Below the pieces are notes generated by a model. It did no database searches, was not told where the DNA came from, and was given only the letters and a program-made list of their open reading frames with translations. 64,000 nucleotides of DNA from NCBI GenBank assembly GCA_039621445.1, contig CP154954.1:11216716-11280715 (forward strand), in the 5' to 3' direction. The position numbers and the translations under genes were made by a program. This document shows positions 27,101-50,041 of the stretch, piece after piece. This DNA is from Euglena gracilis. Its lineage: Eukaryota. Numbering within the stretch: the first letter of the stretch is position 1; the number at the start of each line of letters is the position of its first letter.

Positions 27101-29906
27101 AAAATCATTTTGAAAAATGAACCCCAAACATGTGATTTTTTGATGGAAAACCACATTTTTTTTCACAAAAAAATCTCAAAAATTTCAGGGTTAAAAATTG
27201 GTAGTTTTCAGGAGGGGGGTGAAAAAAATGCAGGTCAAAAAAAAAGTGGACCAAATTTTGACACAGTCAAATTTTACTGACTTTTTTTCTCTTTGAATTT
27301 TTTTGGACTTTCAATGGCATTTTTTTTGCTTCAAAAACCTCTCAAAATCAATGTTGAATTTTGGAAGGTGTGAAAAAATGGGGTTTTGAGGGGGTTTTGG
27401 AGGGACCTCCCATATGGGTCCCAAAATGGGTCAAAAAAACACCTGGCGCCGGAAAGTTTTGGGTCCAAAAATTGGTGCTCCCGGAAATACGGTCAGAATC
27501 CGGTGAAAATGCTGTGGTGGGTGGGGGGGTTGACCCCAGGGTTCGACATAAGGAGGGCGTACATGGTTTAGGTGGCGGGGTGTCCCCCCACCCCCCCCCC
27601 CCCCCCCCCCCTACTGGCCCGCAGGGGGGTCCAGACCGACCTGGGACCCCCCCCCAAAAGGTCAATTTCTTCCTCCGGCGCTTCGCGCCAGAGTTTTTGG
27701 TAATTTTCTGCCATTGACCTGATGAAAAAACACAATGTGCTGCTTGCTCTTTGATTTCGCTGGATGTCAAATTTTTGGCCCGGCGCTTCGCACCGGGCCG
27801 AAAATCGGTCACCCGGACCACGTTTAGGTGGGGGGGGGTCCGGACCACCCCCCCCCACCTGTCCTTATATCGAACCCTGGTCGACCCCCCCCACCAGGCC
27901 CTCCTGTTCTGCCCTGCCAGAGGGCCACCGTAAGAGGTGCGGTTGGCCTTCTCCCCCCCCCCCTAGTTGTACGACCACCCCTCATTTACGACCCCCCCCC
28001 CGGTCCGCGTATCGGGGTGCATTAGGGAGCGCGACTCGGCCATCCTTACCTTGCACACATAAGACTACATTCATTACGGAGCGCGACTCGGCCATCATTG
28101 CCTTGCACACACAAGGGGATTTTGTTATTTTGGGGGGGTCCAGGGGGGGCGGCAGCCCCCCCCCCCCCCGGAGGCCGTAGGCCGACTAAGTTCGCGTATA
28201 TTGCAAATTAACCACAAAAATTGAACCCCGAATGGAAATTTTGGAAAATATTTGGAAAAAAATTTTGGAGGGGGGGGGCTTAAAAAATATTTAGAGGGGG
28301 GGGTGGACTTAAAATTGGTGGTCGGCCCGACCACCAATGGTCAGTAGACTTGGTCGCTAGCGACCGGTCGCTAGCGACCACCAAAAGTTCCATGGCCAAT
28401 AATCCGCAATGAGCCGGGGGCTTAAAAGTCGGCGAGACTGACCCGTAACTACATTAGAGTGGGTGGTCGGCCGACTAGTCGGCCGACCACCCAGAACCCC
28501 CCCCCCAGTCTACCGTTTGGCACTGTCATAACACCCCCATAACCGGCAACCTGTGACCGGGGGGTGGTCGTAAATGAGGTGGCGGTCATAGGTGAGGTGG
28601 GGTTAAGTTTTTCACAACCTGCAACCTGTGACCGGGGGTGGTCATAACACCCCCATGACCTGCAACCTGTCCCCTTCGAAAAAGTTTTTAAGCCCCCCCC
28701 TCGAAAAAATTTTTTTTCAAATTTGGAGGAAAATGACTCAAAACCCACCCAAATGCCTTCCAAACCCTCCATTCGGGGGTCAATTTGCAAAAAAAATTGA
28801 GTAATATCTTCTCTTTGCACCTGTTCTGTGAAACCATAGCCATAGTGTGACTTTATCCTTACCTTGCACACATAAGACTACATTCATTACGGAGCGACTC
28901 GGCCATCCTTGCCTTGCACACACAAGGGGATTTTGTTATTTTGGGGGGGGGGGGGGGGGGGGCCGGGGGGGGGGGGGCCCCCCCCCCCCCCCCGGAGGAG
29001 GCCGTAGGCCGACTAAGGGGTGGACTTACAATTGGTGGTCGGAGCTACAGGTCGCTCCGTCCACCAATGGTCCCTAGCGACCCTAGCGACCGGTCGCTAG
29101 CGACCCCCAACAGTTCCATGGCCAATTTTCCGCTCGGAGCCTAAGCCCCCCCCCTGTGAAAAAATTTTTGTCCAAATCACCTCAACACCAGTCAAAACCC
29201 ACCCAATTGGCTCCAGAACCCCCCAATCGGGGGTGAATATGCAAAAAACTGGGTGCAAAATGTCCATTTTGGGCCACTCTTGGCAAAAGAACACCTTTCC
29301 CCGTTGTATGTTGCCAACGTAGAAGGGATTTTGTTATTTGAGGGGGGGGTGCGGGGGGGGGGCGGAGCCCTGCCCGCCTATGCCAAAGTGAGCCACAAAA
29401 AGGACTTACCCCCGGAGTATGTTGCCAACGCAGAAGGGATTTTGTTATTTGAGGGGGGGGGTGCGGGGGGGGGCGGAGCCCCCCCCCCCGCCTATGCCAA
29501 AGTGAGCCACAAAATGATTTAGCCCCCGAGTATGATGCCAACACATGTTCCTGTTGGTGTAAGGCACTTATTTGGACCCATCCGGACCATTTCGGGGTGG
29601 TTTGGACCCGCCACAGACCATTTTTATGACCACCGACTAGCCACCGACTAGTTTGCATACAATTTTCTTCTAAAAAGTTGGCGAGACTGGCCCGTAACTG
29701 CATTAGAGTGGGTGGTCGGCCGACTAGTCAGCCGACCACCCAGGACCCCCACCCCCCCGCTTTCTCGCCGACTAGCTGCCGGCAGCTAGTCGGCGACTGG
29801 TCGGCAGCTAGTCGGCCGACCAGTTGGGTGGTCGGCCGACCACCCAGGACCCCACCCCCCAGTCTACCGCCTAGGACTGTGTTATGACCCCCCCCGGTCA
29901 CAGGTT

Positions 29907-30560
29907 CAAGGTTGACGGCTAGTCTTTTTTCCAAACAAAAAAACATGTTTTTTTAAAAAAAAATATGTTTTTTTTAAAAAAAACAAAAAAACGTCATGGA
30001 GGAGGGTTTGGGGGAAAATTTTTTGCAATGTTTTTTTTTGGGAAAAGTGCATTTTTTATCTCAACAACATTCATTTTTTTGGGTTGAAATCATAAATTTT
30101 TGCACTAGAAAACCCAGATTTGAAAATACTTTCAAACATTTAAAAAAAAAAACTTCACAGGGGTGTTCCCCCCATGACCCCCCTCCCCCAACCCGACCTA
30201 AGACCCGTTTCAGCCATTTTTTCTGAAAAACTTGGCCGGTGATGCCTAATTTGACAAAATATTCCGGTAGATTTCCTAATTTTCGTTTGGGAGATTCCTA
30301 TTTTGGAGCCTAAAAAGGATTTTTCCCAAAAATTCGTTTTCGGTGATTTCTAATCTGGCCACCGAAAATGTGACACCCCCCTCGTGACCCCCCCCCCTGT
30401 GACCCCCTCGTGACCCGAACCACCCGCGAAAAATTTTCTTCAAAAAAATGATCATTTTGCAAGGAAAAAGGTCAATTTTTGCTTTTTTTATAAAACATGT
30501 TTTTTTGCGTTTTTTTTAAAAAAAAACATTTTTTTTTATATAAAAAAAACGTCAACCCTG
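29907..30560. mobile_element. hAT-like MITE
   Basis: TIR CAAGGTTGACG / CGTCAACCCTG; perfect 8-bp TSD CACAGGTT. Confidence 0.88.
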
Positions 30561-30828
30561 CACAGGTTGCAGGAACCTGGTCATATGACTAGGGGGGGGG
30601 TAGTCTTTTTTTGAATTGGGCCAAATTTTGACAAATTGCCCTGTTTCTCAATGTTCAGGATAGCAAATCCCCTTTTGGGCCGAAGGGTCGGTGGGCTTTA
30701 TTTTTCTTCACCCCTGTTCATCTGCCGCCTTTGGGTTTCCTTCTGTGTGCCAAGGTACAGCAGGGCCATGTGCAAACCCTACCCCCAGGGTTGGATGGGC
30801 AGCCCTTCGGTATTGAGGTAGGTGGTAG

Positions 30829-31145
30829 CAGGGATTTTTTTTAAGTTTGGACCCCCGGGGGGGGGGAGGGGGGGGTAGGGTGGGTGGGCCCGCCGGACCC
30901 CCTCCCCCCCCTCGGGGGGGGGGTCCCCCTCGGAGGGGGGTGGGATATACTTTTCGGCGCCGCAGGCGCCGAAAAAAATCTATTTTTAGCACTTTTCGCG
31001 ATTTTTCAGCCATTTTTTGTGGGTCCCCCCCCCCCCGGGACCCCCTCCCCCCCCCCCCCCCCCGGGGGGGGGGGCCGGGGGGGGGGGGGGTGGGGGGGGG
31101 GGGGGCCCCCCGCGCCCCCCCCCCGGGCTTAAAAAAAAGCCCCTG
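30829..31145. mobile_element. hAT-like MITE
   Basis: TIR CAGGGATTTTTTTTAAG / CTTAAAAAAAAAGCCCCTG; perfect 8-bp TSD GGTGGTAG. Confidence 0.88.
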
Positions 31146-34100
31146 GGTGGTAGGGGGGGGGTCGCTGAGCTCTTATCCCTTTATGGGTAAGAGCGAAGCT
31201 CACCCCTGGGGGAAAACCCCCCCGAACCCCCCCCCCTCCCCCCCCTCGGGGCCACCTCGGGGCTCTGTGCGGATTTCCGGAGGTGGTCGCTGTGGAGGTC
31301 GGCCCGACCATGGTCGGGCCGACCATGGTCGGCCCGACCTGTGGAGGTGGTCGACCGACCTGTGGAGGTCGGGCCGACCACCATTTTTTTGCACTACCCC
31401 CCCCCCCTTTTTTGCATTTTTAAGCCCCCCCCCCTGGTCGGTGGGTGGTCGGTGGGCATAAAAATGGTCTGTGGCGGCCCCAAATCACCCGGAAATGCAC
31501 TTATGGCCAGTTCTCCCCCCCCAGGACCATGTCCTGGGGGGGTCCTGGGGGCGGTCCTGGGGGGGGTCCTTCGGAGGGTGCTGGGGGGTCCTGGGGGGGT
31601 GCTGTGGGGGGTCCTTGGTGGGTCCCGCATTTTTTGGCAGAAATTTTGCAGCACAAGTTCAGGTTATTCTAAAGTGGGTACCGCCCCCCGGTGGGTCCTG
31701 GGGGGGTCCTAGGGGGGAAACTGGCCATGACTCTCACGAGATGGTCGGTAGCTAGTTGGCGAGAGGGGTGGGGGGGTGGGAGAGGGGTGGGGGGGGGTGT
31801 TGGGTAGTTGGCCGACTGGTTGGTCAGAATTGCAGCAGCCTACGGCTGTTGCGGTGGCCCTTGGCCGCTGCGCGGCCTTCGACCAGGAGGCCTTCGTGGC
31901 GCATGGCAGTAGACTGGGGGGTGGGGGGGGGAGTCGGCCGACTAATGGTCGGTAGCTAGTTGGCGAGACGGGGTAGGTAGGGTATTTGGTAGTCTGACTA
32001 CCCACTCTAATGTACTAACGGGTCAGTACCGCCGACATTTAAGTCCCCCTGAAGAAAATCCCATGCAAACAGGTCGGTGGCTGGTCGGTGGTCATAAACA
32101 TCGTCTGTGGCGGGCCCAAATCACCCGGAAATGGTCCGGATGGGTCCAAATAAGTGTCTTACACCAACATAAACACCCCCAGATGGAAATCTTTGGACGG
32201 TGGGGGGTCGGTGGACCCTTGATGGGGGCCCGGAGGGGTAAAAAAACAATGATGAAACAGGGATTACATGAAAATCCTTTAGAAATGCAAGCATTCTGCA
32301 TCACGAGAGGCAGGAAACTCCTCCCTCCACCCCCATCCGAACATCAAATAACAAAATCCCTTCTGAGTTGGCAACATACTCGGGGGATAAGTTGTTTTTG
32401 TGGCTCACTTTTTTCATAGGCGGGGGGGGCTCTGCCCCCCCCCGCACCCCCCCCCTCAAATAACAAAATCCCCTCTATGTTGGCAACGTACTTGAAGGGC
32501 TAAATCCTTTTTGTACAAAATTTTGCAATTATATTGAAAATCCGATGGGGAGAGGTGTTCTTTTGCCAAAAGTGGCCCAAAATGGGCAATTCCCCCCCAC
32601 GTTTTTGCATATTCACCCCCGATTGGGGGGTTCTGGAGCCATTTAAGTGGGTTTTGAGTGGTGGTGGGGTGATTTGGACAAAAAAAATTACAGGGGGGAG
32701 CTTAAATCAGAAAGGGGGGCGGGGGGGGGGGGGGGGGGGCGTGTCGTGCAAAAAAAATGGAGGTCGGGCCGACCAGGTCGGCCCGACCGCGACAGGTGGA
32801 TAAGGTCGAGGCGACCATTGGTCGTAAAATGGCCTTAGACCATGGAGAGGTCGGGGGGAAAAGCCGACCATGGCCTACGTCAGCCGGGGGGCCGACGCTT
32901 TCGGCCCTACCTCCCAGCGGGGACGCGGAGATGGGGGGGGAGGGAAGGCAGTGGCAAGGAGAGAGTCCGTAAAAAAAAGAGTCTCCCAGCGACCACCTCC
33001 GGAAATCCGCTCGGGCCCCACCTCGGGATCCGGCGGATTATCACCATGATCCCGGCCCCGTTCCCGAAATTTTTTTTTCAGTCGCGAGCGACTGGATTTC
33101 TAGTTTCCGAATCACCTGGGTTTGACCCCCAACTCCCCGCCAGGCCCGAGTTATTCACGCGCGAAGGGGTCCAAACTGGGTAGGATCGGCCCGCCCCCCT
33201 TTTTAAGCCCCCCCCTTTGGACTCTGCCATTTCGGCCAAAAAAAATGTCAATTTTCAAAATATCTCCAAAATGAAGCAAAATCAAAGGAAATGTCCGGAG
33301 ACCTAATTTGAAGCCCTTGGAACGCCCCATCTACTGGTATTTTGATTTCCCCGCAACTCCCCGCCTAGCCCGAGATACGGCCGTTTTCGGCGCAGATGGC
33401 CGTTTTGTACATTTTTCCCACTGTTCGACTTAGCCGTTTTCGGGGGGTGGGGGGTCAAAAAATCGATGTTTTCAACATTTCTCGAAAATGATGCAAAATC
33501 AAAGGAAATGTCCGGAGACCTAAATTGAAGCCCTTGGAACGCTCTATCTACTGGGATTTTGGTTTCCCCGCAACTCCCCGCCCAGCCCGAGATACGGGCG
33601 TTTTTTTGGCCAATTTAGGCCATTTTAGGCCATTTTGTACACTTTTCCCGCTGTTCGATTTAGCCGTTTTCGGCCAAAAAAGTCGAAAAAAATCGAAAAA
33701 TATTTTTTTGCCCGAAACGATGTTTTTTGGCCTCCCGGACCCAGAAAAAACTGTTTTTGAGCCGAAAACGAGCGTTTTTCGACCCACCAGCGCCCCGTTT
33801 TGGGCTGCCGACCCATTGACTTTGGGTCAAAACCGGGTCAAAAAAGTGGAAATTTTTAGTAATTTAAGTAATTATTTCTGTATGTGCGAAATGGGATTTT
33901 TCTCGATTTTCGGTATCTTTCTGGTGATACGTTGGTTTTTGAGGGTGGGTGGGCGAGGGCCGCTGGACCTGTTGTTCCAAACTTCCAACAGGTCGGTCTG
34001 ACCTCAGGTTGGCTGGCGGGCAGACCAGGCCAGGGCGTCGCTAAAGCCGAAGGGGACCCCATGCCCCAGGGGGTTCCGCCCGGCCAGTCTTTTTCCATCC

Positions 34101-34351
34101 CTGGACCCCCATCCCCCACCCCATCGACGAGAATATTTTCCAGCCTCTGAGCTGGACCCCCTTGGGGAGTCGCAAAGCAACGCGGGGGGGGGGGTTGATG
34201 CAGGGCATCCTCATTGACCACGAGAGGTCAGCCCAACCACCAAAACCGCCACGGCCAAAAATCCACCCAGGGTGCTCTGAGACACCCCAGCCTGTCCTCC
34301 ATTTCCTTGTCTTCTTACCTGGCATTGAAAACGGGCCGAAATTCTTCCACT

Positions 34352-34424
34352 GGTCTTGATTCCACTTGTGTTTGTGATCCTCAGACTGTGGTCACGCCCT
34401 TTGATCCTGGCCATCATTTGCCAG
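34352..34424 (+). CDS. Exon 2 of the claudin/amastin-like gene
   Basis: VLIPLVFVILRLWSRPLILAIICQ, in frame with exons 1 and 3. Confidence 0.78.
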
Positions 34425-35326
34425 GTCCAGGCATTTTCTGAAGTCAGGATGTCCCACCCGCCATTGGCAGCACTTTCTCTGTGCGGATTTCCACGGATCC
34501 TCACTGGGTGGGGCGCAAGGTTGACATTTTTTTTTAAAAAGAAAGCAAAAAAAAGCTTTTTTCCCAAAAGAAAACACACCAAAAAGCAAAATGCAAAAAT
34601 GAAAAATTTGCATTTGAATGCATTTGAAAATGCAAAAATTTTTTGTTTTTTTTCGTTGAAGAACGCCAATTCTAAAAAAACCCTCAAAAATGTGTTTTTT
34701 TTTGGAAATTGACAAAAAATGCTTTTTTGGTCAAATTGGGGAAATTCACCCGTTTAGGTCAGTGGATTTCCATTCAGGCTCAGTCGATTTCCAAGACACT
34801 GAAATCTGTTGTTGGTAAGATTCGGAATTTGGAGTGAAATTTTGGATTTCCACCTTTTTTCGACATTTTTTTGGTTGTGCGGGGTTATGGAAGCGTTTTG
34901 GACCAGACAATGGCTAAATCTTGCAGTCAGATGGCCCCAAGCGGATTTCCGGTGGTCGTCCTTGTGGTGGTCGGCCCGACCACCATTTTTTTGCACTACC
35001 CCCCCCCCCCTTTCTGGAGATTTAAGCCCCCCCCTCTGAAAAACTTTTGTCCAAATCACCCCAACACCAGTCAAAACCCACTTAAATGGCTCCAGAACCC
35101 CCCAATCGGGGATGAATATGCAAAAACTTGGGGGGAAAATGCCCATTTTGGGCCACTTTTGGCAAAAGAACACTTCTCCCCATCGGATTTTCAATATAAT
35201 TGCAAAATTCTGCACAAAAAGGATTTATCCCTCCAAGTATGTTGCCAACATTAGGGGATTTTGTTATCTGAGGGGGGGGTGCGGGGGGGGGGGCGGACTC
35301 AGCCCAGCCCACCCCCCCCCCCCCCC

Positions 35327-35366
<40 letters not shown>

Positions 35367-37911
35367 GGGGGGGGGGTCCAGCCAGCAGCTCAAATCCAGC
35401 CAGCAGCCTTTTTGCCAGCCGGAGGCTGGACTCCCCCCCCCCCGCAAACGAGGCGGTGGCTAGTCGGTGGTCATAAAAATGGTCTGTGGCGGGCCCAAAT
35501 CACCCGGAAATGGTCCGGATGGGTCCAAATAAATGTCTTACACCAACATAAACACCCCCAGATGGAAATCTTTGGTCGGTGGGGGTCGGTGGGCCCTTGA
35601 TGAGGGGTAAAAAACCAATGATGAAACGGGGATTACATGAAAATCCTTTAGAAATGCAAGCATTCTGCATCAGGGAATTTCTTAAGGTTTTTCTTCATAG
35701 ATTTAAATGTCGGCGGTAGTGACCCGTTAGTACATTAGAGTGGGTAGTCGGCCGACTACCCAATACCACCCCCCCCCACCCCGTCTCGCCGACTAGCTAC
35801 CGACCATTAGTCGGCCGACTCCCCCCCCCCCCAGTCTACCGCCATGCGCCCCGAAGGCCGCCTGGCCGAAGGCCGAAGGCCGCGCAGCGGCCGAAGGCCG
35901 CTGCAGTTTCAGAACCTGATCAGTTGATGATGTTATTTAAAGGCGTAGGGTTAGGGTCAAGTTTCCATTCCTAACTGTCCCATCCCATCCCCTCAACGTC
36001 GTTCAATTGGTGTCTGCAGGGGACCCAGCGAACCCAAAGAGGCGCCCAACTAGGGTTAAAAACATTGGGGGACCCGAGCGAGGCGCCGAAGGCGCCGAGC
36101 GAGGGTCCCCCAATGTGTATTAACCCTAGTTGGGCCTCTTTGGGGTAGCTGGTCCCCTGCAGGCACCAATTTATCACGCATCAGTCACCGCCCCCTCAAC
36201 TGGTCGATCGACCCTTCAACTACTTGGTGGCAGGCTGGAGGGGGGGCTGGCTAGTCGGCTGACTAGCCAATTGGTCGGCCGACCGACCACGCCAATTGGT
36301 CGGTCGGCCCAGTCGGCAGCGAGTCGGCGAGACAGGGGGGGGGAGCCAGTTGGCCGACTAGTCGGCGAAATACCCACTCTAATGTGCTGGTGAGTCAACC
36401 GCCGACTTTTAAGCCCCCCCCCCCCATGAAAAAAAACTTCGGATGGGGGTGGAGGGGGGAGTTTTCTGCCTCTCGTAAGAGTCATGGCCAGTCCCCCCCC
36501 CCCCAGGACCCCCCCAGGACCCACCGGGGGGGCGGTACCCATTTCAAAGAAACCTGAATTTGTGCTGCAAAATTTCTGCCAAAAAGTTGTGGGACCCACC
36601 CAGGACCCCCCCCCCCCAGCACCCCCCCAGGACCCTCCAAAGGACCCCCCCCCCAGGACCGCCCCAGGACAGGGTCCTGGGGGGGGAACTGGCCACAAGT
36701 GCATTTCCGGGTGATTTGGGCCGGCCACAGACCATCTTTATGCCCACCGACTAGCCACCGACCAGGGGGGGGGGGGGCTTAAAAATGCAAAAAAGGGGGG
36801 GGTATTGCGGGAAAATGGTGGTCGGCCCGACCACCACAGGTCGGGCCGACCATGGTCGGCCCGACCACCACGACGGCGACCACCGGAAATCCGCACGGAG
36901 CCAGATGTCACAACTGGCTAACAGGCCGAAGTTAGGATGTCCGTTTCATTTTCTGGAACTTCAGAATAAGCATTCTGTACAATTTGGCCAGATTCCGTTG
37001 TCATCGCTGGACGCCTGATCAGGCTGTATTTTAGTCGGGTGCCGACCACACCCAGGGGTGGGGGGTGCCTGCCTGCGCAGGCACAACCCCGGCGCGGGGA
37101 GCCAAAAATAGCCTGTTTTCAAAGGAATGTGCCTGGGCACAGGCCGAAATCCGACCCCCCCCCGGGGGGGTAGTGCCTGCCTGTGCAGGCACTCCGACCC
37201 CCCCCCTCCCCCCCCCCCGGGGTTGCTAAAAAACAGCCTGCGCCTGATGAGAAGCTTTCAATCGGGGGTGTTTTGGCAACTGTTAAAACCTATTTCCATG
37301 GCCCGACGCCTGTCTTGAAATTCCACTGACATCAACGGATTTCAGGCTGAAATTGTTTATGTTGATCGCTTTCCAAGACGGCGCCCATTTATGTCGTTTG
37401 ATCAATTGATTGGCTTCGATTTCAGCAGAGGGCGCCGGGCGGCTTGCTTTGCTCGCTCGCACCCGGAGCCCCTGCTGAAACCGTTGGTGTCGGTCGATTT
37501 TTGAAACAGATGGATACAATCCCGATCGTCTAAATTCAGGAATTTCATCTTCATTGGTCAAGGAATTGGGGAAATCTGGATATTGCCAAAAAGGCACAAA
37601 ATGGAACAAAACGGCGTTCTTAAAAATGAAAACAAGAAAGGTTGGTCGATTCCCAAGGCATCGGAATCCGTTTACGTCAGTTGATTTCCATTCAGGCGGC
37701 TGTTAATGGGCCAAAAAACCACTTTTTTGGCTATTCCGATGTCTTTGAAATTGACCAACCTTTTTATGACGTTTTGTTCCATTTTTGGCAACATCTAGAT
37801 TTCCCCAAATTCTTGACCAACGAAACTGAAATTTCTGATTAAAATAATTTAAGACTGAATTTTGTTCATCCCAATGGTCAAGGGGTTGTTGTTCAGAAAG
37901 GGCCTGGCCGG
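34425..37911 (+). other. Nonconventional/intermediate intron 2 (3,487 nt; GT 5' end, non-AG 3' end)
   Basis: GTC CAGGCATTTTCTGAA ... TTCAGAAAGGGCCTG GCCGG|GTG. CAG at +4..+6, CTG at -8..-6, 14 of 15 positions pair. Confidence 0.8.
37020..37240. mobile_element. hAT-like MITE
   Basis: TIR CAGGCTGTATTTTAG / CTAAAAAACAGCCTG; perfect 8-bp TSD CGCCTGAT. Confidence 0.9.
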
Positions 37912-38097
37912 GTGTTCATCATCATGGTACCTGCCTCCTGCATCTGCTCCTATTCTGTCTTCATCGCGTATGCCGAAATGACCTGCCACGCCAATAGTAT
38001 TTTCCCAACGCATGGCTACTCTTATGGGTTCATCCTGCTTGTCTTCTCCTCTGCCCTTTCGCTTGGAGCCACTGCGACTGGCTTTTTGGGCATCAGG
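37912..38097 (+). CDS. Exon 3 (TM3-loop-TM4)
   Basis: VFIIMVPASCICSYSVFIAY...GYSYGFILLVFSSALSLGATATGFLGIR; GYSYGF resembles the start of TM4 in the claudin superfamily. Confidence 0.82.
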
Positions 38098-38309
38098 GAT
38101 CAGGGAATTGGACAGCATTAAGGTGCTGCACAGGCCTTTTTTTTGCTCGGCATGCATCTCAGAACATTTTGTTCTGCTGTTGTGTTTTTTTTGAGAGTTC
38201 AAAAATCAAGAATTCAAGGATTTATATTCCCACTTTTTTTTAAAAGGTTGCTTAAATATATTTTTTTAATTGAGCTCATTATTTGCCAGTTGTCCAGCAC
38301 CCTGTTGCC
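38098..38309 (+). other. Nonconventional intron 3 (212 nt)
   Basis: GAT CAGGGAATTGGACAGC ... GTTGTCCAGCACCCTG TTGCC|AAG. CAG at +4, CTG at -8, paired ends, in-frame join GIR|KLKKY. Confidence 0.85.
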
Positions 38310-38474
38310 AAGCTGAAGAAGTACCAGCTGCTTGATCTCGATGTGAAGGAGAAGGAGTTCTATGTGGATGGGCAGGAGGTCCCGTTTGACGGGGTGTACG
38401 AGGAGTACAACCCGCATGCTGCCCCGACCCCCGTTCCGACCACCGACTCTCCGCACCACGTGGTTCTCTACTGA
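38310..38474 (+). CDS. Exon 4 (C-terminal tail)
   Basis: KLKKYQLLDLDVKEKEFYVDGQEVPFDGVYEEYNPHAAPTPVPTTDSPHHVVLY*. Confidence 0.82.
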   Translation, partial: KLKKYQLLDLDVKEKEFYVDGQEVPFDGVYEEYNPHAAPTPVPTTDSPHHVVLY

Positions 38475-38594
38475 TCAGCTCTCCAGCCTGCTGCTCCACC
38501 CTGTGCTTGACCAAGCCGCAGTGATGTGTCCTGTGAACGAGGAGTCTCTCAACTTTTGTGTTGTACCAAGAGCTCACGCCACACACTCAGGCGG

Positions 38595-38620
38595 CACGCG
38601 CACACACACGCACACGCACG

Positions 38621-38696
<76 letters not shown>
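38595..38696. repeat. (CA)n(GA)n compound microsatellite in the probable 3' UTR
   Basis: Directly visible. Confidence 0.95.
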
Positions 38697-39154
38697 CAGC
38701 ACAAAGTCCACAAACACACACACAGCACAAAGTCCACAAATACCAACCCAAAGTGCTCAGAAGAAAGAAGAGAAAAAAATGAAGATGGTTGGCGTTTTGT
38801 CCCTTGATTTAAATGCAAAGGAGGATTTGGACTTTTTTTGCGTGTTTTTGGGTCCTCGCCGTCCAGCTGCCGGCCGGACCTGGACCCCCCCCCCCTCCCC
38901 CAGGGGGGGATGTCCAGCCAGCACCTATTTCCCAGCTGGCGTGCAAGACCCCCTGGTCCTTGAAAAAGCCCCCGGTGGCCCGGAATTTTTTTTGGGTTTG
39001 GCCAAAACCCATTGGTTTTGAGTCATCTTTGGCCCAGTGGCCAGAGTGACCAACCCCCCCCCCCCGGGTTGTTGGTGCGTAGTGGACTGACTGGTTTTTT
39101 GAAAGTGGACAGTGACCCCTTGGGGGGGTTACGAAGCAATGGCATGGTTGGAAC

Positions 39155-39608
39155 CAGGCTGTATTTGGGTGCCGACCCCCACCCCGGGGGGGGGGGGGGC
39201 TGCCTGGGCAGGCACTCCAAATCCGACCCCCCTCCGGGGGGGAGGGCACTCGGCCAAAAGTGCCTACCAGGCACTCCGGCGCGGAAGGCTCCGGAAGGCT
39301 CAAAAAATGCCTATTTTCAAGGAAAATGGCCTTTTTTCTGAGGAAAGTTCCTGGGCACAGGCCGAAATCCGACCCGCCCCCCCCCCCCCGGAGGGGAGTA
39401 GGTCCCAGAAAATTTGGAATCCTCACTTTTGGTTACCTGGAGCCTCCAGGGAGGCTCCCTGGAGGCTGGTTACCTGAGCCTCCCTGGAGCCTCCGGCAGG
39501 TAACCTCCTCGACAGGATTCCATTTTTGCGGTTGACCCGTGCCTGCCTGGGCAGGCACTCGAGGGCACCCCGGACCCCCAGCCAGGGGTTGGCTAAACAA
39601 ACAGCCTG
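39155..39608. mobile_element. hAT-like MITE (same family as 37020-37240)
   Basis: TIR CAGGCTGT / ACAGCCTG; perfect 8-bp TSD GTTGGAAC. Confidence 0.9.
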
Positions 39609-42600
39609 GTTGGAACCCCACAAAGCACCAAGATTTTGGGTCCGCTGCACCTCCCTCCCCGGGTGAAGGGGTGCCCCATTTGGTGGGGCGGGACTGGTCC
39701 TCCCACCAGGCTTTCCAGCGGACCCCCTGGGTCAGGGTCATACATACATCTCTCTAAGGTTTTTCGACCCCCCCCCCGGGGGGGGGGGCGGCTACAGAAG
39801 CCAAAGGGCATCTAAGGGCGGGGCCGGCTGCAGCCAGCCCCGATTTGGGCCCAGCCCAGCCGCAGCAGCCCCCCCAGGGGGGGGGGGTGCTGCTAGCCCA
39901 GGTAGCCAGCCCCTTTTTTGGGGGTCCAGCCCAGAATTTTTCGGCGCGAAGCGCCGAAATTTTTTGAAAAACTGTGTTCAAAAGTGGCCAAAAATGCCCC
40001 CCCCCCCTCCTGGCCCGCAGGGGGGGTCCGGACCCCCCCCCCACCTGCCAGGGGGGTCCGGACCGGGGGGGGTTCCCGGGACCCCCCCCCCCAAAAAGGG
40101 TCAATTTTTTCCTCCGGCGCTTCGCGCCGAAATTTTTTTGCATTTTTGGCACATTTTTTGCTCAAAAAGTGCCCAAAATGGCACTTTTGGTCGTTTTGGG
40201 GGGTCAAAAATTTTCGGAAACCCAGACCGCGCAACTGTTTAGGTGGGGGGGTGGACCCCCCCACCCCCACCCCCTCCGGGCCGCAGGGGGGGGGTCCGGA
40301 CCACCCCCCCCCACCTGTCGAACCCTGCCCTGGGTCCTTAAAAAAAACAAGAGTGTGTCGTGAGAGGCTCCTCACCAGGGGCTGATGGTTGACCCCAGCA
40401 TTATTTCAAGAAATCATCATCCCACATATGCCGAAGCAGACGCGAAATGCTCTTTGCCCTGGTTTTTTTGAATTTTTTTTTCCACCTGTGAGTTCCATGC
40501 CCCTCCCCCAATAGTGTCCCATACCCCACCCCCCCCCCCCCGCCTCGGGACCCGAACAGCTGGTCCTAAAGGATTTTTATTGACCCCCCCCCCCCGATAG
40601 TGTCCATACCCACCCTGTGGTTCAGCCGGGTATGGGACATTATCGGGGGGGGGGGCACGGGTGTAGGGATGTTCAGTAAAGGCAAAGCGGCCGTCATGTT
40701 GGGTACGAGGCACTAAAGAATCCATACCCCCCCAATTGGAAGCCCTTCAGGTTTCCTGTCAAAACACCGAACAAGTCCACACAGCAAACAGGGCCAGAAT
40801 CTGCTGAAAAATTTGCACAAAAACAGGTCTCATGGAGGGGATATGCGGAGTGCATATTTTGCGCGCATTTCGCATATTTTGCATTTTTTATTATTATTTA
40901 TTATTCATTCATTTATTATTCATTATTTTTTTATTTTGTGTATTTTTTTGGCCAAACAGTGCATATGTCACACACTTTGTGAGGATATTTTGTCTGTTGC
41001 CACGTGTGTTTTGACCGCAAAATTTTTGAAATTTTGGGGGCAACCAAAATGGCCCCGAAATGGCCTGAAATGGTCAAAAACATCATATCAGTGGCATATC
41101 GGCATCAGTGGCAAAACGGCATATCAGTGGCCTGAAATGCCTTGCCACGTCACCTGAACACAACCAAAAATGATATGCTTTCCGCAGCTTTTCAGCACAA
41201 TTTTTCACACATTTTAGTGCATATTTTGTGGTCCCCCCACCTGAGGTCTCCAAATTTGATTTTTCTTTGCGTATTTTATTCCGGGGATTTATCAGGCCCA
41301 GAGGGTGACCTTAGCACACAGTTTTTTTTTAATTTTAAAAAGTCCTCTCTCGTCTGCTTGGTTCAAGTCCAAAAGGTTTTGGTTGTGGTTGCAGTGGTTC
41401 AGTTGGTCATTTCCAGGGGTTTTTTTTAGTCTTGGACCCCCTCCCCCTGGGGGGGGTCCCTTGGACCCCCTCCCCGGATAGGGGCTGGTGGGTATATCTT
41501 TTTCGGCGCCGAAATTTTTTTGAAAAATGTGCTATTTTTAGCATTTTTGGCGGTGGGTCCCCCGGACCCACCCACCTCCCGGGGGGGGGGGGGTCCATCC
41601 CAGGGGTGGGTGGGTGGGGGCCGACCCCACCCCCCCCGCCTTAACTCCCCCCCCCCCCCTTGTCCAACGACCACCCCCCCCCAGTCAGTAGCGATCTTTT
41701 TCCAGGTGATCTTTTTTTCCAGATGTTCGCGTTCTTACCTCCAGCCTTTTCTTACAACTTTCATGGCGGATTTATACCTGTGTGTATATACCTGCCCCCC
41801 CATTGTCTGACCTCCCCCCCCCGTCTCGTTGACACGGCGTGTCGTTGACACTTGTCTAAGCACCCCCCCCGGTTCGTACCCATCTTTTAAAAGAGTCACC
41901 TTGTTGGTGGATATCACATATGTGTACATGTACCAAAGTTACCGCTTGGTGTAGACCAGAAAGGAAAGCGTAGTTTTACCCCCCCTCCCCTAGTCGTAGA
42001 CACCCCCTCTTTACGACACCCCCCGGGTCGCAGGTTTGCAAGTTAGGGGTGTGTTACGGACCACACCCCCCGGTCACAGGTTGCAGGTTGCGAAAAATTA
42101 AAACCCACCTACCTATGACCCGCCCCCTCATTACGGACAACCCCCCGGTCACAGGTTAGGTGATGGGGTGTTAAGACCACACCCCCGGTTCACAGCGTTG
42201 CAGGAACCCGGTTCATACGACTAGGGGGGGGGGGTTTTACCACGATGCCACTGTAAGACTCCACCGAGTGTGACCATCTGTCTCTGTGCTGCATTGCCAT
42301 GTTGATGGAACGTTACAAGGTTTGTTTTTTTTACCTCTTACGGCGCGAAGCACCGATTTTTTGGGGGGTAATACGTTTTCCCCCCTTGTCTAAGCACCCC
42401 CCCCCCAGTTCTTACCCATTTTTTCTGGTTCTTAGACAAGGGGGGTACATGTGCTAATGTGATGTGTGCTATAGATGTGATGTGGGTTGGATTTGCAATG
42501 GCAGTCTTTTGCTCAGCCAGAATCTGAGTGTTGTGGCCATGTCAGGCAAAGGAAACTTTTTTCTTCACCTTGAGGCGAAGCGGGAGAAAGTGTTTTTGGC

Positions 42601-45517
42601 CCCGGTCTTGTCTAGCGACCACCCCCCCTGGTCAGTAGCGATATTTGGCCAAAATAGCTACCCCCCCCCCAGTCAGTAGCGATATTCAGTGGTTGTTGGA
42701 CAGGGGGGGGGTAAAAGAACCCCTGGTCAATTCCCTCTGTTCCACAAGAGCATTTCCTCATCATCATCCATATAAAAGCCAAACCAACCGACAACACAAC
42801 TGTACTTGTAGTTTGGTGGCCCATGTTGTCTGCAAATCGGGCCTATTACCTTTCTGTGTTGCTGTCAGCTTTGTTTCTTCACCTGTTCCAAACTCCCACT
42901 GATTTGAAAGTGAAGATGAAATGGGAGGCAGAGACGAACTCAGAATCACCAGAACAATCAAATGACGTCTGAAGAAAACTTTTCTCCCCCGAATTTGGAC
43001 AGACCCAAAGCATGTTCCTCACAGAAGAACGACGGAATGCCCAAATTGTGCAAAAATAACAGCAGAGGCACTCTGGAAAGTGAAACAAAAATGAGGATTT
43101 CAGCAGGGAGTTTTTCAAGGATGATCCCCACAAGCATTGCATCCTCCCCTCTCACCCCCCCTGTTCTTCTCAGTCTTTCCTCCTTTTCTTTTCTTTGCAC
43201 AAGGGATCAGGTCCATTGTGGGCACATTCACCCCCATCAAGCAGCGACATGCACCATCCATAGCGCACAGGATTACGGAAGCGGAATGCAATCCCTTCCG
43301 TCCCTTCGCTCTCATTTTGCACGCGACAAAAGTGGGAGTTCAGTTCAGTTCAGTGAACCCCCAGGGCGACTGGATCTCCCCTGGCATGTCTTCTTGTCTT
43401 TCTTCTCTTCTGGTCCACGTTTGTGTTTGCAAAAATGTGCCATTGATGGGCTCATTGCGGGAATTTGGTGATGGATTTTTGGTGGTGGCGACTAGTCGCT
43501 AGCGACCATTGGTGGTCGGGCCGACCACCAATAATAAGTCCACCCCCCCCTCTAAAGAAATTTTTAAGCCCCCCCCCCCCAATTTTTCAATCAAATGTGA
43601 AGGAAAATGACTCAAAACCCACCCAAATGCCTTTCAAAACCTCCATTTGGGGGTTAATTTGCAATTTGTGCAAGGCAAGGACGGCCGAGTTGGGCTGGCT
43701 CAAGAAGAATTCAAGATAATTCATGGTTTTCGACATGGGATTTGAAGAATTCAAGCAAACACCTGAATTTTTCCCACTCAGGGTTTTTGCCTCTGCCGAG
43801 TGTGAAGTTCGGCTCCCAGTCGCCCTGCTTCGTCTTGCATATATTTCGCTGCGTATTTGTCCAGTCAGCGATTCGGGCCTAAATGGGATCTCATCCAATT
43901 CTCAGCAGGAAAGGAACTCTGGATGCAAGGATACAGGTGTTGTGAATCTGACTCTACCCCATGTGCAGGGGGGGGGGGATGTGCTGCGCATTTTTGCGCA
44001 TTTTTGTCATTTTTTCAAAAAATGCGCATTTTTGCGCATTTTTTTCCATTCTCCCACTTTTTTTTTACACTTTTTGGAGGCATTTTGTCAATATTGTCCA
44101 TGTTGTCCACATTGTCCATATGCCAAAAGCAACACTTGACATTGATGTTCTTCAATACCGTTCTTCAGCACCAACCAAACCACATGCTCACCGAATTTTG
44201 CCCACATTCAACTAACCCATTTCTATAACCAACGAACCCATTTCCGCACTTTTTTCCACCCAAGGGACCCGCCTCAAGAAAAAACCGTTGGGTGATGAGG
44301 TGTGGGTACTCATCCAACGATGATGAGGACACCAGGGTTTTCAGAGACCCCACATCGAATCCTTCTCCCCTCGTCACAAGTAAGGGGCAACCATGGCTGA
44401 CATTGTTGGTTATGGTGGACAGAGAGTGACGCCTTGCTCGTGCATTTTTTTTTAACCAAAACTGCCTTCATTTCAGCTGTTTTTGGTGATTTTGGTTTAA
44501 TTTTGGGTTTATTGTTGGAAATTTTTCCAAGTCTTTTTTCCCTTAGGAATGTACAAACTCAGCGCATTTTTGCGCATTTTTTCCGAGGGCCGTCCAGCGC
44601 ATCCCCCCCCCCCCCTGGCATGTGATTGTACCGGATCAGCCCAGCCGGCGCAAAAGGGAATATTGAGCAATTGTCTGGAGTCATTTGAATGTGTGTGTTG
44701 GGAAGTTTTTTTTTCTTTGGGGACCACCCAGGATGGATGTGAAATATTTGCGCAAAGCGATGTACTTGCAGCGATCAATTTGTGTTGGGATTTGGTGTTG
44801 TGCAAGGATGGATGGGTGTGGCCCGCCTATCTCATGCCTTGATTCACAGTTCCCCCCAATCATATTCCATGGATGCCCACCTGGCATTATGGGTTGTCAC
44901 CCCACTTTGGGGACAGAACACCATGCACGCATCAGGCTTCATTACTTCATTATCAAAGTTGCATATTAGATGGGGTCATATCATCAGGGATTTCCAAATT
45001 AACAGCAGTCAGGGCTTGCCAAAACACATTTGGGTCAAAAATTGATGTTTTTTTGCATAATTGGTGGCTTTCGGGGCATTCTAGCAGTTTCGGTTTTTTG
45101 GACCTTTTTTTGACGGCCCATCTTCACTGGGAACCCCGGTGGGGGGGGGGGCGCTCAGCTAGCAGCCTTCTCCCAGGCAGCCCAAAACAGGGGTTTTTTT
45201 TAGTCTTGCACTGGGGGGGGTAGGATGGGTGGGTCCGGCTGAGCCCCCCCCCCCCCCCCGGGGGTGGTTTATGTTTGGCGCCGAAAATTTTTGGGGAAAG
45301 TGTTACCCCCCTCCCCCGGGGGGACCCACAGCTTTTACCCGAAAATGGCCAAAATCACGAAAAATGCTTAAAATAGCCCCTTTTTCAAATTTTTCGCCGA
45401 AAAGTATATCCCACCCCCACCCGGGGTTGGGGGCTCGGCCAGACCCACCCCCCCCCCCGGGGTCGAAGACTAAAACAAACCCCTGCACCCATCCAGCCTG
45501 GTGAAGGACCCTCCCAA

Positions 45518-45764
45518 CAGGCTTCTTTTTAAGTCACCTGACCCCCCCCCCCTGGGGGAGGGTGGGTGGGTCCGGGCCGGACCCCCCCCCTGGGGGGGGG
45601 GGGGTCCCGCGCCGGAGGCGCTGGGTATACCTTTTCGGCGCAAAGCGCCGAAAATTTTTGAAAATTGCCTTTAACGGGCCCGATTTTGGGGGTCCCCCCC
45701 CCCCGGGGGGTCCCGCGCCACCCTGGGTGGGTGGCCCCCCCCGGGGGTCTTAAAAAGAAGCCTG
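45518..45764. mobile_element. hAT-like MITE
   Basis: TIR CAGGCTTCTTTTTAAG / CTTAAAAAGAAGCCTG; perfect 8-bp TSD CCTCCCAA. Confidence 0.9.
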
Positions 45765-48433
45765 CCTCCCAAACTTGGGCAACTTGAAAGTATTTTTCAA
45801 AATTTTTTTAGCATTTTGTGCCAGGGGAAGGGAGGTCCGGCACCATCCCAGGCCCCCGGCAATTTTTGGGTATTAGGTCAAAAAAATTGAAATAACGTAA
45901 AAACCCCTCAATGGGGGGTGCCCTCACGATCCAACCAGGGTGTTGCTTGACAAGCCCCCCCCCCCAGGCACAGCTGAGAGGCTGTAAAGTTGTGGGCCAG
46001 GGGCTTTGGGGTTTTTTTAAGACTGGGGGGGAGGGGGGTCAAATTTTTTCTTTCGCACTGGGGCGAAAATCGGTCACTGGACTGCCCCACTGTTTAGGTG
46101 GGGGGGTGTCCCCCCCAGGGTTGTCGTTTTTTTTGTTTTTTTAAATAAAGCAAAAAAAAACATGTTTTTTAAAAAAACACCAAAAAACATGTTTTTTTGA
46201 AAAAGCAAAAATTGGCCTTTTTCCTTGTGAAATGGCCATTTTTTCGAGGAAAAAGTTCTGGGGGTGGTTCGGGTCACGGGGGAACACCACATTTTCGGTG
46301 GCCAAATTACCCCCCCCCCCCTAGTCGTACGACCACCCCTCATCTATGACCACCCCCCGGTCACAGGTTGCAGGTCATGGGGGTGTTATGACCACCCCCC
46401 CCGGTCACAGGTTGCAGGTTGCGAAAAATTTAACCCCCCAAAATAAGGTCCCCCCTGCTGGCGCGAAGCGCCGGATTTTTGAAAAATGGGACATTTGGGG
46501 GGGGTAAATCTGCCATTTTGGGACAGTTTTCACACACTTCTACGACCGCCCCCTCATCTATGACCACCCCCCGGTCACAGGTTGCAGGTTATGGGGGTGT
46601 TATGACCACCCCCCCCGGTCACAGGTTGCAGGAACCCGGTCATACGACTAGGGGGGGGGGTAGGAATCATTGAAAACGAATTTTGGGGGGAAATCCTTAA
46701 ATTAGGAACCCCCACACCTAAAAATAGGGTTTTGCATCCCAAAATTTGCAAAATTTATGCCTCAAAAGCAGGAATCTAGCTGAATATTTTGTCAAATTAG
46801 CATCACCGGCCAATTTTTTTCAGAAAAAAATTGGCCGAAAAGGATCTTAGGTCGGGTCACGGGGGGGGGGGGGTCACGGGGGGGGTTGCTGACCCCCCCC
46901 CATCCAAATAACTGGCGGAGTACCATGTTATTGGAACCGACTTTTGGCCCTGCCCCCCCCCCGCCAGGTTATTTGGGCCCTTTTTTTCAGCGTCGTAAAG
47001 GAATTTTCCTTAAAAAGGGGGTGCCAAGTTACTGGAAGCTTCTTTTTTGCCCCTCCCCCTGCCGCCACTGCCAGGGCCCCGCAAGGGCCCCGCCAGGTTA
47101 TTTTGGGGGGGGCGGGTTTAGCAGGGCTTGCTGTCGGACTTTTTTTTCCAGTGACAAATTTTTTGGAAAAAAAAAACTCCAAAACCCCCCCCCTGGTCAA
47201 TTGCCTGCACTTCAGCCTGGTTCCATCGGCTGACCGAGTGGGGAGAATACAAATGAGGCCTGAGTTTGACCCAAAGAATTGCAGTTATTCATACCTATTG
47301 GCAGTGCCACGTGCTATGGAATCAGCGAGAACAGCGTTGCCGAACATCCGCCGCTGTTTGCCCTCCAGCTTTGCAAAACTTTGCCATCGCCACAAAAAAG
47401 AATCAAGGTGTTTTCCAGTTTCAAGGTCTGATGTCATCATATCAATCAAGACCAGTTTCACTCTGATGTCAACACATGTTGCCATGTCATAGCTGGCACT
47501 TCGTTTAAAACGAAGTCAAAAAAAACAGGTTTTTTAAAAAAAAATATGTTTTTTTTTAAAAAAACATGTTTTTTTTTAAAAAAAACAAAAAAACGCCATT
47601 GAGGGTCCAGGGCAAAAAAAAATTTTGCTTTTGGTTTTAGCTTTTTTTGCCCATCCTCGGTCAGAGAAAGACACCAAATTTGGGATGTTTCAAGTTAGTT
47701 TAGAATGGTTTCAAGCCAAAATGGCAGAAAAATACCCTATTTTGACCATTCTTGTTTAAGACAACCAAAAGTATTGGTTTTAAAGCCATTTGAGCTAAGA
47801 TTGGTTCACCCCCGCCATCAAAGGCAAAATTTGGACCATCATTTTCCCTTTTGTTTTTTTTGCCGTTTTTTTTTGCCGGTTTTTTTTTAAAATAAAAAAC
47901 AAATAACGTTTTAAAGAAAACAAAGGGGAAAAAAAAACCGTCAGCTATGCGCCATGTCCAATGAACTTCCGCGAAGGGCGGAGTCAACCATCCGTAGGCT
48001 TCGTGGGTCCCTGTCGCAAAGCACCTTCGCCGATGCAGGGCGATGCGGGGAGTTTTTGGAATTTTTTGGAGGCGGGGATTTTGGATGGCTGAAGAGGGGT
48101 CCATATTTGGGCCCCTGCTGCGTGGTGCACCCTCCCTCCCCCGCAGACCAATCCAGCCTGCCCTTCATGTCTGCCCGTGCCTCTGCCTCTTCTGCCGCGC
48201 TGGACCCCTCCGTCCCCTCCGGGAGGTGTGTGACTCCCCTGCACCCGAAGGTGTCGTGCCCCTGCTACATACCTGCGTACCGCCTCACATTGGAGCTTGC
48301 TTCGTACCTGGGTCGGCGATGTTCCTCCGACACCTCGGGCTCCGCACTGTGCCCTTGTGAGGCCATGCCTTGCTCGCCGGCGGTGTTGTTTGGATTGTTT
48401 GGGTGCGTTGGGTTAGGAGGTCCCGCTTAGTGC

Positions 48434-49766: not shown

Positions 49767-50041
49767 TTTGTGCTGCGGTTGCTGTTTGGTGTTTTTCAGC
49801 TGTTTCAAATTCCATGTTTCCCAGCGTAAACATGGTAATCAGAGGGGCGAAAGCTGCAATCAGTTTTCAGGTTGGATTGTCAGTGAGTGATTTTGTCTGT
49901 ATTTGTTTTGCCCTGAGTTTCGCAAAGACAAATTTTCAGACACCAACAATTCTGGAACCGGTTGCGGTGATGGGTTAAATTTTTTTGGTGACGATTGTCA
50001 TCACGGGTTTGAAGACAGCAGCTGGGTGGTGTTGGTTTGTA

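Follow-up and report, generated by a model that had tools for sequence, protein, structure and literature searches.

For about three decades it has been asked how the nonconventional introns of euglenids arose and by what mechanism they are removed. These introns make up ~70% of the introns in E. agilis (PMC12501133) and follow the published rule N3-CDG...CH'G-N5-6|purine, with paired ends; the 3-nt and 5-nt spacers have been fixed by knock-in (PMC12501133, section 8). A pyrimidine|purine (Y|R) context is common to both junctions, and the second exon base is A in 43/55 introns (PMC4770533). Two introns carry junction repeats: a newly gained, strain-specific intron in the E. agilis gapC gene has "eight nucleotide direct repeats" at its junctions (PMC4770533), and for one tubB intron up to nine placements can be drawn (PMC3935182). 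A transposon origin had already been suggested, as the preliminary description of the present locus stated, and the general idea of descent from MITEs is indeed published. According to its authors, euglenid genomes had by 2013 yielded no identified transposable element (PMC3935182), and the idea has been repeated since with no element named.

One parallel is provided by the introners of Micromonas, Aureococcus and dinoflagellates, in which a DNA transposon with inverted repeats makes a target duplication and becomes an intron, the element being spliced out together with one copy of the duplication (PMC11282704). Introners, however, use the spliceosome and draw a splice site partly from a duplication of 3-5 nt (PMC11282704), whereas at the locus described here distance from a helix fixes where the cuts fall, the duplication measures 8 bp and the machinery is apparently non-spliceosomal.

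The window, a stretch of 64,000 nucleotides from E. gracilis, is a nuclear locus, rich in repeats, from an organism of Euglena type. It contains an expressed gene running from an ATG at 23830 to a TGA at 38472, which encodes a 257-aa protein with four hydrophobic stretches and is interrupted by three nonconventional introns. The RNA data comprise two raw runs (X21 and X24) and two contig sets (X1 and X2), and the exons joined at the RNA joints form an open frame of 257 codons. Exon 1 (23830-24179, + strand) is an open reading frame that starts at the ATG, its putative 5' end; a 30-nt loose end at 24148-24177, marking its border with intron 1, is present in 408 X21 and 149 X24 reads. Exon 2 (34352-34424, +) is defined by RNA reads and the open frame, and exon 3 (37912-38097, +) by RNA reads, with a weak, sub-threshold match to Amastin. 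Exon 4 (38310-38535, +) carries the stop codon (38472-38474), and part of the reads leave it at 38535. Six exon positions differ between the window and most RNA reads, so that the main source of the reads is another allele, paralogue or strain.

In introns 2 and 3 the RNA reads put the cuts at exactly 3 nt ahead of CAG and 5 nt past CTG. The joint of intron 3 (38098-38309, +, 212 nt), from 38097 to 38310, cannot slide, is supported by 359 X21 and 101 X24 reads as well as X1 and X2 contigs, and reads gat-CAG(38101)...CTG(38302-38304)-ttgcc|A, exactly N3-CAG...CTG-N5|A, with a terminal repeat of 12/16. Intron 2 (34425-37911, +, 3487 nt; terminal inverted repeat 13/16) is joined from 34423 to 37911 in 420 X21 and 162 X24 reads and in one contig each of X1 and X2; the boundary slides by 3 nt, and the N3/N5 placement, gtc-CAG(34428)...CTG(37904-37906)-gccgg|G, lies within this ambiguity. 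Both are removed at borders other than GT-AG and have the N3-CAG...CTG-N5|purine form and the paired ends described for nonconventional introns in euglenids (Milanowski et al., 2014, 2016; Nomura et al., 2025). The preliminary description had assigned the form NNN-CAG...CTG-NNNNN to the host introns in general; it holds for these two, which fit the published rule exactly, but intron 1 (24180-34351, +, 10172 nt, boundary sliding by 3 nt), which is not GT-AG, reads gac-AAG...CTT-ccact|G in that register and conforms in spacing only. Its terminal helix is 12-14 bp long, and cofolding predicts energies of -21 to -30.5 kcal/mol for the terminal helices of introns 1-3. A further junction, from 38535 to 40381 (98 X21 and 42 X24 loose-end reads), breaks the 3+5 geometry, because its spacers total 10 and its helix is GAG/CTC. 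Back-joints across intron ends, which would mark circular excised RNA, were absent among the joints listed.

The introns and their surroundings hold at least six MITEs, non-autonomous DNA transposons of at least three families. The five reported in the preliminary description were recovered at the same positions by direct reading and by script: each starts with CA(G/A)G, ends with CCTG, carries terminal inverted repeats and lies between perfect 8-bp duplications. Two are inside intron 1. M1 (29907-30560, 654 nt) ends CAAG...CCTG (CAAGGTTGACG / CAGGGTTGACG) and has the duplication CACAGGTT/CACAGGTT at 29899-29906 and 30561-30568; M2 (30829-31145, 317 nt, CAGG...CCTG) is flanked by two copies of GGTGGTAG. 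M3 (37020-37240, 221 nt), with ends CAGGCTGT...ACAGCCTG and CGCCTGAT on both sides, is nested in intron 2, which also holds other repeats; three X1 contigs originating elsewhere meet the window exactly at its start, 37020. M4 (39155-39608, 454 nt, GTTGGAAC on both sides) belongs to the M3 family and is located downstream of the host-gene stop codon, and M5 (45518-45764, 247 nt) has a 16/16 inverted repeat, CAGGCTTCTTTTTAAG, between two copies of CCTCCCAA. A sixth perfect element, M6 (39733-40327, 595 nt, CAGGGT...ACCCTG, duplication CCCTGGGT, 8/8), was absent from the earlier list. The six range from 221 to 654 nt, have no coding capacity and are multi-copy; the MITE ends have the form CAGG(G/C)...(C/G)CCTG, with terminal inverted repeats of 13-20 nt. 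Three or four decayed elements accompany them. E7 (41414-42725, 1312 nt including nested repeats, ends CAGGGGTTTTTTTT), a decayed relative, has flanks matching at 7/8 positions, and another relative, E8 (45188-45485, 298 nt), has a 20-nt inverted repeat, CAGGGGTTT and TTTTAGTCTT, without a duplication (3/8). E9 (27537-27879, 343 nt, ends CAGGGTTCGA and ATAAGGA, flanks 7/8) is nested in E10 (26991-27916, flanks 6/8), and both have mirror copies at 626-1537, in a palindrome arm. By BLAST within the window, M3 and M4 form one family, and internal sequence is common to M2, M5, E7 and E8.

An uninterrupted paralogue of the M1 target (46597-46659) contains CACAGGTT once, so M1 is a real insertion accompanied by an 8-bp duplication. 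The same comparison bears on the idea that the elements are introns spread through an RNA intermediate, circles being excised and then copied into DNA again. In its favour, nonconventional introns form circles once excised (review, PMC11282704), but a circle would bring along the 8 nt of its old locus, whereas the flanks of M1 are the new target, duplicated there and single in the empty paralogue; we regard this route as very improbable. A form lacking M2, with a joint from 30827 to 31154, occurs in one X1 contig, one X2 contig and one X24 read. It looks like an allele or paralogue and not like a splicing product, because 326 nt are absent, not 325. Chance was controlled by a scan restricted to CA[AG]...[CT]TG ends whose inverted repeat scored 11/14 or better (1442 pairs, palindrome counted in). 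Perfect 8/8 flanks occurred in 4 of the 1442 pairs, whereas ten controls, shifted or mis-registered, gave 0-1 each; 7/8 flanks occurred in 10 pairs against 1-4 in the controls. In two looser scans, open to any terminus, homopolymers dominated and the controls were not exceeded (7 hits against 4-12, and 5 against 1-81). The CA-restricted scan, a blind search for MITE architecture, also picks up host intron 2.

The six MITEs look like members of the hAT superfamily, a name that the preliminary description had given them. The assignment is drawn from two features, duplication length and termini. The terminal inverted repeats of hAT elements have the consensus (C/T)A(A/G)NG. All 12 termini here begin CA(G/A)G; at the fifth base M1, M2 and M6 have G, and M3-M5 have C. 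Like hAT MITEs and maize Ds, the elements have an 8-bp duplication, short inverted repeats starting from CAG or CAA and no coding capacity. Ds itself, a hAT element, reportedly acts as an intron that can be removed from RNA (Giroux et al. are said to have described this in 1994); its removal, unlike the process considered here, is said to use cryptic spliceosomal sites and to be imprecise, and the present elements differ further in being without a known transposase partner. The hAT target preference is nTnnnnAn (PMC10368747); in the very small sample of six duplications, A is at position 7 in 4/6 and T at position 2 in 1/6. A search for an autonomous hAT transposase, proposed earlier as a check, gave none among the 20 longest ORFs of the window, which yielded only RVT_1 and rve. 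This result is also what would be seen if the elements belonged to Merlin or to another superfamily with 8-bp duplications, in which case the family name would be wrong and the geometrical argument would stand. E. gracilis has two described Merlin families, likewise DNA transposons that make 8-bp duplications, in a genome of this kind (PMC8101967). All Merlin ends begin GG, however, and Merlin elements encode DDE_Tnp_IS1595 (PMC8101967), whereas the elements here start with CAGG, with CA...TG inside the inverted repeat, and encode nothing; membership in Merlin or such a superfamily seems improbable.

The main finding concerns how the elements and the introns fit together. An element plus 3+5 flanking nucleotides equals the element plus one duplication, so the geometric match between MITEs and nonconventional introns is real; the RNA-placed cuts of introns 2 and 3 bear out this point of the preliminary description. 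The MITEs also have the terminal motif and helix of the nonconventional introns, and the extended terminus CAGG(C/G) is common to them and to introns 2 and 3, as is a terminal repeat, 12-13/16 in these introns. In cofolding of M2 and M5 the predicted helix begins at the C of CAG, ends at the G of CTG and leaves the 8-nt flanks unpaired; introns 2 and 3 are predicted to form the same terminal helix, but with flanks partly paired. It tells against the match that, for M2 and M5 on the + strand, the exon start after such cuts would be a pyrimidine, and that one end of M1 has CAA, which the published rule disallows. The two published introns with 8-nt junction repeats agree with the 3+5 geometry (PMC4770533, PMC3935182), and the second exon base corresponds to position 7 of the duplication, the A of the hAT target nTnnnnAn (PMC4770533, PMC10368747). 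Published euglenid work speaks of "MITE-like" sources without element family, superfamily or duplication length, whereas here actual elements with 8-bp duplications adjoin the introns. The link 8 = 3+5 was not found in print.

We propose that the 3+5 ruler is matched to the 8-bp duplication and that insertions of such MITEs into exons gave rise to many nonconventional introns, a reading to which we give a probability of roughly 0.6. The nonconventional splicing system pairs the intron ends; its upstream cut lies 3 nt before the 5' CAG and its downstream cut 5 nt after the 3' CTG. The transcript of a MITE would form the same terminal helix, and the cuts on it would separate positions 5 and 6 in each duplication copy. 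Removal of the element and exactly one copy would then restore the pre-insertion mRNA, in either orientation of the element. Later, drift may have erased the duplication and the interior, while introns grew by nested insertions, as seen in introns 1 and 2.

Whether the three host introns themselves arose in this way is a separate matter. Insertion with an 8-bp duplication, pairing of the ends and the 3/5 cuts in host RNA are shown. We infer that MITE transcripts are cut by the same system and that these introns descend from MITEs, but the idea that these particular introns are domesticated element copies is weak. The identities of the 8-nt flanks, 6/8 for intron 2 (GCCAGGTC/GCCGGGTG), 4/8 for intron 1 and 2/8 for intron 3, were reproduced. 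The 6/8 of intron 2, earlier taken as the remnant of a target duplication, is equalled in a control register (-5), and the values for introns 1 and 3 lie at chance level or close to it. Pooled, the three introns give 12/24 (P about 0.007-0.03), part of which splice-site preferences could explain. Overlap between intron ends and MITE families was sought by BLAST of ends and interiors within the window: nothing matched beyond the termini, and both ends and interiors are unique, with no near-identical copies. No RNA read shows splicing of a MITE with an intact duplication. The earlier view of the introns as domesticated hAT MITEs is partly supported, by the insertions, the 3/5 cuts and the published introns, and at this locus finds no support in flanks, homology or a spliced element.

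The same flanks and lack of homology, together with the aberrant junction at 38535, are what one would expect if the match were a coincidence, the elements being ordinary transposons with generic hAT ends, the introns products of double-strand-break repair or altered conventional introns, and 3+5 = 8 non-causal. Milanowski et al. indeed interpret the 8-nt repeat as break repair (PMC4770533). Three independent features nevertheless agree (CAG/CTG termini, terminal helix and a spacer sum equal to the duplication length), the junction repeats of the two published introns are exactly 8 nt long (PMC4770533, PMC3935182), and the same Y|R context at both junctions is as expected from two copies of one target (PMC4770533). 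We consider coincidence unlikely.

The geometry may also act as a filter and not as an origin. The splicing system would then be older, and only transposons with fitting ends and duplication length would insert harmlessly in genes and so thrive; most old introns need not be theirs. In keeping with such selection, the six perfect elements, which represent at least three families, read CAG at 11/12 termini, and elements pile up within introns of an expressed gene. For young introns, however, a filter makes the same predictions as descent from MITEs, and the window does not separate the two; we hold it to be quite improbable. The most far-reaching version of the MITE origin is that all euglenid nonconventional introns come from one hAT-like MITE group and that the machinery is a dedicated RNA-level transposon eraser, whose ruler of 3 nt and 5 nt evolved to add up to the 8-bp stagger of the transposase, giving scarless erasure of any exonic insertion in either orientation. 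This we offer tentatively, at somewhat less than even odds.

The locus offers concrete candidate elements for a MITE origin of euglenid nonconventional introns. It also lets simple arithmetic account for the spacers of 3 and 5 nt that experiment has fixed, since their sum is one 8-bp target duplication. If true, a non-spliceosomal case would join the growing list of introns made by transposons, and a host strategy is suggested in which insertions are neutralised at the level of RNA.

The MITEs and their 8-bp duplications are as the preliminary description gave them. Direct reading of 29800-46500, together with a script that prints element ends and flanks, recovered all five listed elements exactly at their coordinates, each starting with CA(G/A)G and ending with CCTG between perfect target-site duplications: M1 (29907-30560; flanks CACAGGTT / CACAGGTT, ends CAAGGTTGACG and CAGGGTTGACG), M2 (30829-31145; GGTGGTAG twice), M3 (37020-37240; CGCCTGAT twice), M4 (39155-39608; GTTGGAAC twice) and M5 (45518-45764; CCTCCCAA twice, with a 16/16 inverted repeat). 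The observation is confirmed and also extended, by a sixth perfect case, M6 (39733-40327; CCCTGGGT twice). There are also four decayed relatives: E7 (41414-42725) and E9 (27537-27879), whose flanks match at 7/8, E10 (26991-27916), at 6/8, and E8 (45188-45485), with a good inverted repeat and flanks of only 3/8. BLAST within the window places M3 and M4 in a single family and finds internal sequence common to M2, M5, E7 and E8. Partner ends were searched for an M1-like end at 34516, nested in intron 2 of the host gene, and for an M1 relative at 46116, and none was found; two scans of metagenomes with MITE-end patterns gave 0 matches each. The first base of M3, 37020, is the exact joining point of three RNA-run contigs from elsewhere.

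The strongest single proof that MITE insertion here is more than chance is an empty site. Both sequences flanking M1 recur unbroken at 46597-46659, where CACAGGTT is present once. Intron spread via RNA circles is rejected on the strength of this site. The M1 target is a copy of a separate repeat family whose ends are C-run/CTAGTCGTA ... TACGACTAG/G-run; the family is found at 41981-42233, at 46290-46660 and around M1 (about 29860-30600). In one of its copies there is a direct repeat of 8 nt, GTTTTACC, with borders blurred by homopolymers.

Chance was further assessed by scans for the end and duplication architecture. A restricted scan required CA[AG]...[CT]TG ends and an ungapped inverted repeat matching at 11/14 or better; it covered 1442 pairs and was set against ten shifted or mis-registered controls. 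Perfect 8/8 flanks occurred in 4 pairs vs 0-1 in each control, and 7/8 flanks in 10 pairs vs 1-4; the scan also recovered intron 2. Two looser scans for inverted repeat plus duplication, open to any terminus, gave no excess over controls: one yielded 7 hits (vs 4-12) and the other five 8/8 hits among 8985 pairs (vs 1-81). M2, M3 and M5 account for three of these five, and the remaining two are flanked by homopolymers. The looser scans are overloaded with false pairs from homopolymer (poly-G/C) runs and from a 28-kb palindrome.

The hAT label fits in part. Besides the 8-bp duplication, the elements agree with it in their CA(G/A)G termini, in being small and in having no coding capacity; Pfam finds no DNA transposase among the window's 20 longest ORFs, in which the only matches are RVT_1 (E 7e-21) and rve (E 1.5e-8), in long plus-strand ORFs of an LTR-type retrotransposon at 49979-62472. 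E. gracilis is on record as having Merlin families that carry 8-bp duplications, which makes Merlin a rival assignment; in the excerpted account, however, all Merlin ends begin with GG, whereas the elements in the window start with CAGG (PMC8101967). On these sequence traits the elements are classed as hAT-like, not hAT.

The host gene of the nonconventional introns is expressed, as judged from two contig sets (X1 and X2) and two raw RNA-seq runs (X21 and X24) mapped to 27000-38585. Almost all X24 reads have one direction, which the mapping tool notes as RNA on the plus strand. The intron 2 joint, 34423->37911, skips 3487 nt, with 3 nt that fit either side, and its support is 420 X21 reads, 162 X24 reads and a single contig each from X1 and X2; of its four equivalent placements, one reads gtc-CAG(34428)...CTG(37904-37906)-gccgg|G. 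The intron 3 joint, 38097->38310, skips 212 nt with zero ambiguity, reads gat-CAG...CTG-ttgcc|A, and is carried by 359 X21 reads, 101 X24 reads and contigs. For intron 1, a 30-mer mapping to 24148-24177 occurs on 408 X21 and 149 X24 reads entering at 34350, so the intron is about 10.2 kb long and holds M1 and M2. Its borders are not GT-AG, its terminal helix is 12-14 bp, and the 3/5 spacing is obtained only when it is read as gac-AAG...CTT-ccact|G. The proposed intron form, NNN-CAG...CTG-NNNNN, is thus borne out by the RNA joints of introns 2 and 3, but not by intron 1.

Splicing of the exons leaves a 257-codon open frame (ATG 23830 to TGA 38472) with four hydrophobic stretches. Exon 3 (37912-38097) matches Amastin only weakly (E 0.03; 14.7 bits, short of the 27.2 cut-off), and together these features suggest that the product may be an amastin-like membrane protein. 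The window letter differs from most reads at six exon positions. Positions with another letter in most reads, or with a variant in the stop region, are 37940 (344/415 X21 reads), 38008, 38009, 38056, 38426, 38444 and 38474, and a 3-nt deletion in the stop region is present in 77/284 X21 reads. The exon mismatches indicate that the reads come mainly from another allele, paralogue or strain than the window; expression comes from two or more alleles, paralogues or strains.

The neighborhood of the gene is rich in repeats. Positions 1-28542 form a near-perfect palindrome (18 inverted pairs, 92-100% identity, centre near 14120), which places a mirror copy of host exon 1 at about 4357-4706 on the minus strand; either a genuine inverted duplication or an artefact of fold-back assembly could explain the palindrome. 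Positions 23297-23381 are a (GT)43 run, and 25025-25093 hold about 12 telomere-like (AGGGTT)n units in an interstitial array. A very abundant repeat at 33192-33965 reaches an X1 contig depth of 24000-43000, and X21 and X24 RNA reads there step back 164 nt (33838->33675 and 33840->33677; 27 and 30 X24 reads). Other copies of this repeat probably consist of tandem 164-nt units, although the step back may instead reflect circular RNA.

The claimed geometric match between introns and MITEs, 3 + 5 = 8, is real, with RNA evidence now behind it. In introns 2 and 3 the cuts fall 3 nt upstream of CAG and 5 nt downstream of CTG, and the MITEs are CAG...CTG units between two copies of an 8-bp duplication. 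On a MITE transcript such cuts would separate position 5 from position 6 of each duplication copy, with loss of the element and one duplication copy. In cofolding, M2 and M5 form a helix whose limits are exactly the C of CAG and the G of CTG, with unpaired flanks; introns 2 and 3 form the same CAG-CTG terminal helix, but part of their flanks is predicted to pair. These two introns further resemble the MITEs in a longer terminus, CAGG(C/G), and in a terminal repeat matching at 12-13/16. When the published splice signature is applied by reasoning to the flanks that the script printed, splicing on one strand or both would be possible for five of the six perfect MITEs; the exception is M1, owing to CAA at one end.

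Evidence for descent within the locus is weaker. The intron flanks match at 6/8 (intron 2), 4/8 (intron 1) and 2/8 (intron 3), as given in the preliminary description, but their reading as duplication remnants is weak, since intron 2 also gives 6/8 in a control register (-5). Pooled, the flanks match at 12/24 (P between 0.007 and 0.03), part of which could come from splice-site preferences common to introns. Overlap of intron and MITE families did not hold up within the window: BLAST of intron ends and interiors found no MITE match beyond the termini; apart from self-hits it yielded just an internal inverted repeat and a single 30-nt match. In X1, X2, X21 and X24 mapped to 27000-38585, no read shows an intact MITE being spliced. 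An RNA form lacking M2 (one contig in X1, one in X2, one read in X24) was considered as such a case and rejected: 326 nt are removed, not 325, which fits neither a 3/5 nor a 3/6 cut, and one G fewer is left than by precise collapse. It is probably an allele or paralogue. A further joint, 38535->40381, rests on 98 X21 and 42 X24 loose-end reads, with 40381 beyond the mapped stretch 27000-38585. The skipped 38536-40380 contains a (CA)n/(GA)n run, M4 and M6, and its ends form a 13-bp GAG.../...CTC helix (GAGGAGTCTCTCA / TGAGAGGCTCCTC); the spacers are 3 and 7, total 10, which breaks the 3/5 rule. The skipped segment may be an intron, in that case a 3'-UTR intron holding M4 and M6, or else an allelic deletion.

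Published cases, taken here from excerpts, bear on the same question. Knock-in experiments set the rule that the 5' spacer must be 3 nt and the 3' spacer 5 nt, with +1 tolerated and the exon beginning with a purine (Nomura et al., 2025; PMC12501133). Up to nine placements can be assigned to one tubB intron (Milanowski et al., 2014; PMC3935182), which implies an 8-nt repeat, and a strain-specific, newly gained gapC intron has 'eight nucleotide direct repeats', read by its authors as break repair (Milanowski et al., 2016; PMC4770533); we take both by length alone, their register relative to CAG/CTG aside. Among 55 introns, the upstream exon ends with a pyrimidine in 49, the intron starts with a purine in 51 and ends with a pyrimidine in 49, and the downstream exon starts with a purine in all 55, with A as its second base in 43 (Milanowski et al., 2016; PMC4770533). 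Two copies of one target would be expected to give both junctions a common Y|R context, as is the case, and A at the second exon base corresponds to position 7 in the duplication, where the hAT target nTnnnnAn has its A (PMC10368747).

The best explanation, to which we give a probability of roughly 60%, is an origin of nonconventional introns from these MITEs, with a 3 + 5 ruler that mirrors the 8-bp duplication. Its support is mainly the geometry and the published cases, not remnants in the locus. The general idea of a MITE origin is already known: it was proposed by Milanowski et al. (2014; PMC3935182), who stated that no transposable elements were yet identified in euglenids. In the excerpts cited, MITE-like elements only 'may be their source' (Nomura et al., 2025; PMC12501133), and a 2024 review mentions 'TSD-like' repeats, giving neither length nor superfamily (PMC11282704). 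No paper linking 8 to 3 + 5 turned up in a literature search that paired Euglena introns with hAT, introner, DNA transposon or target-site duplication. The specific element type and this arithmetical link appear to be new, and both are quickly testable on the full genome.
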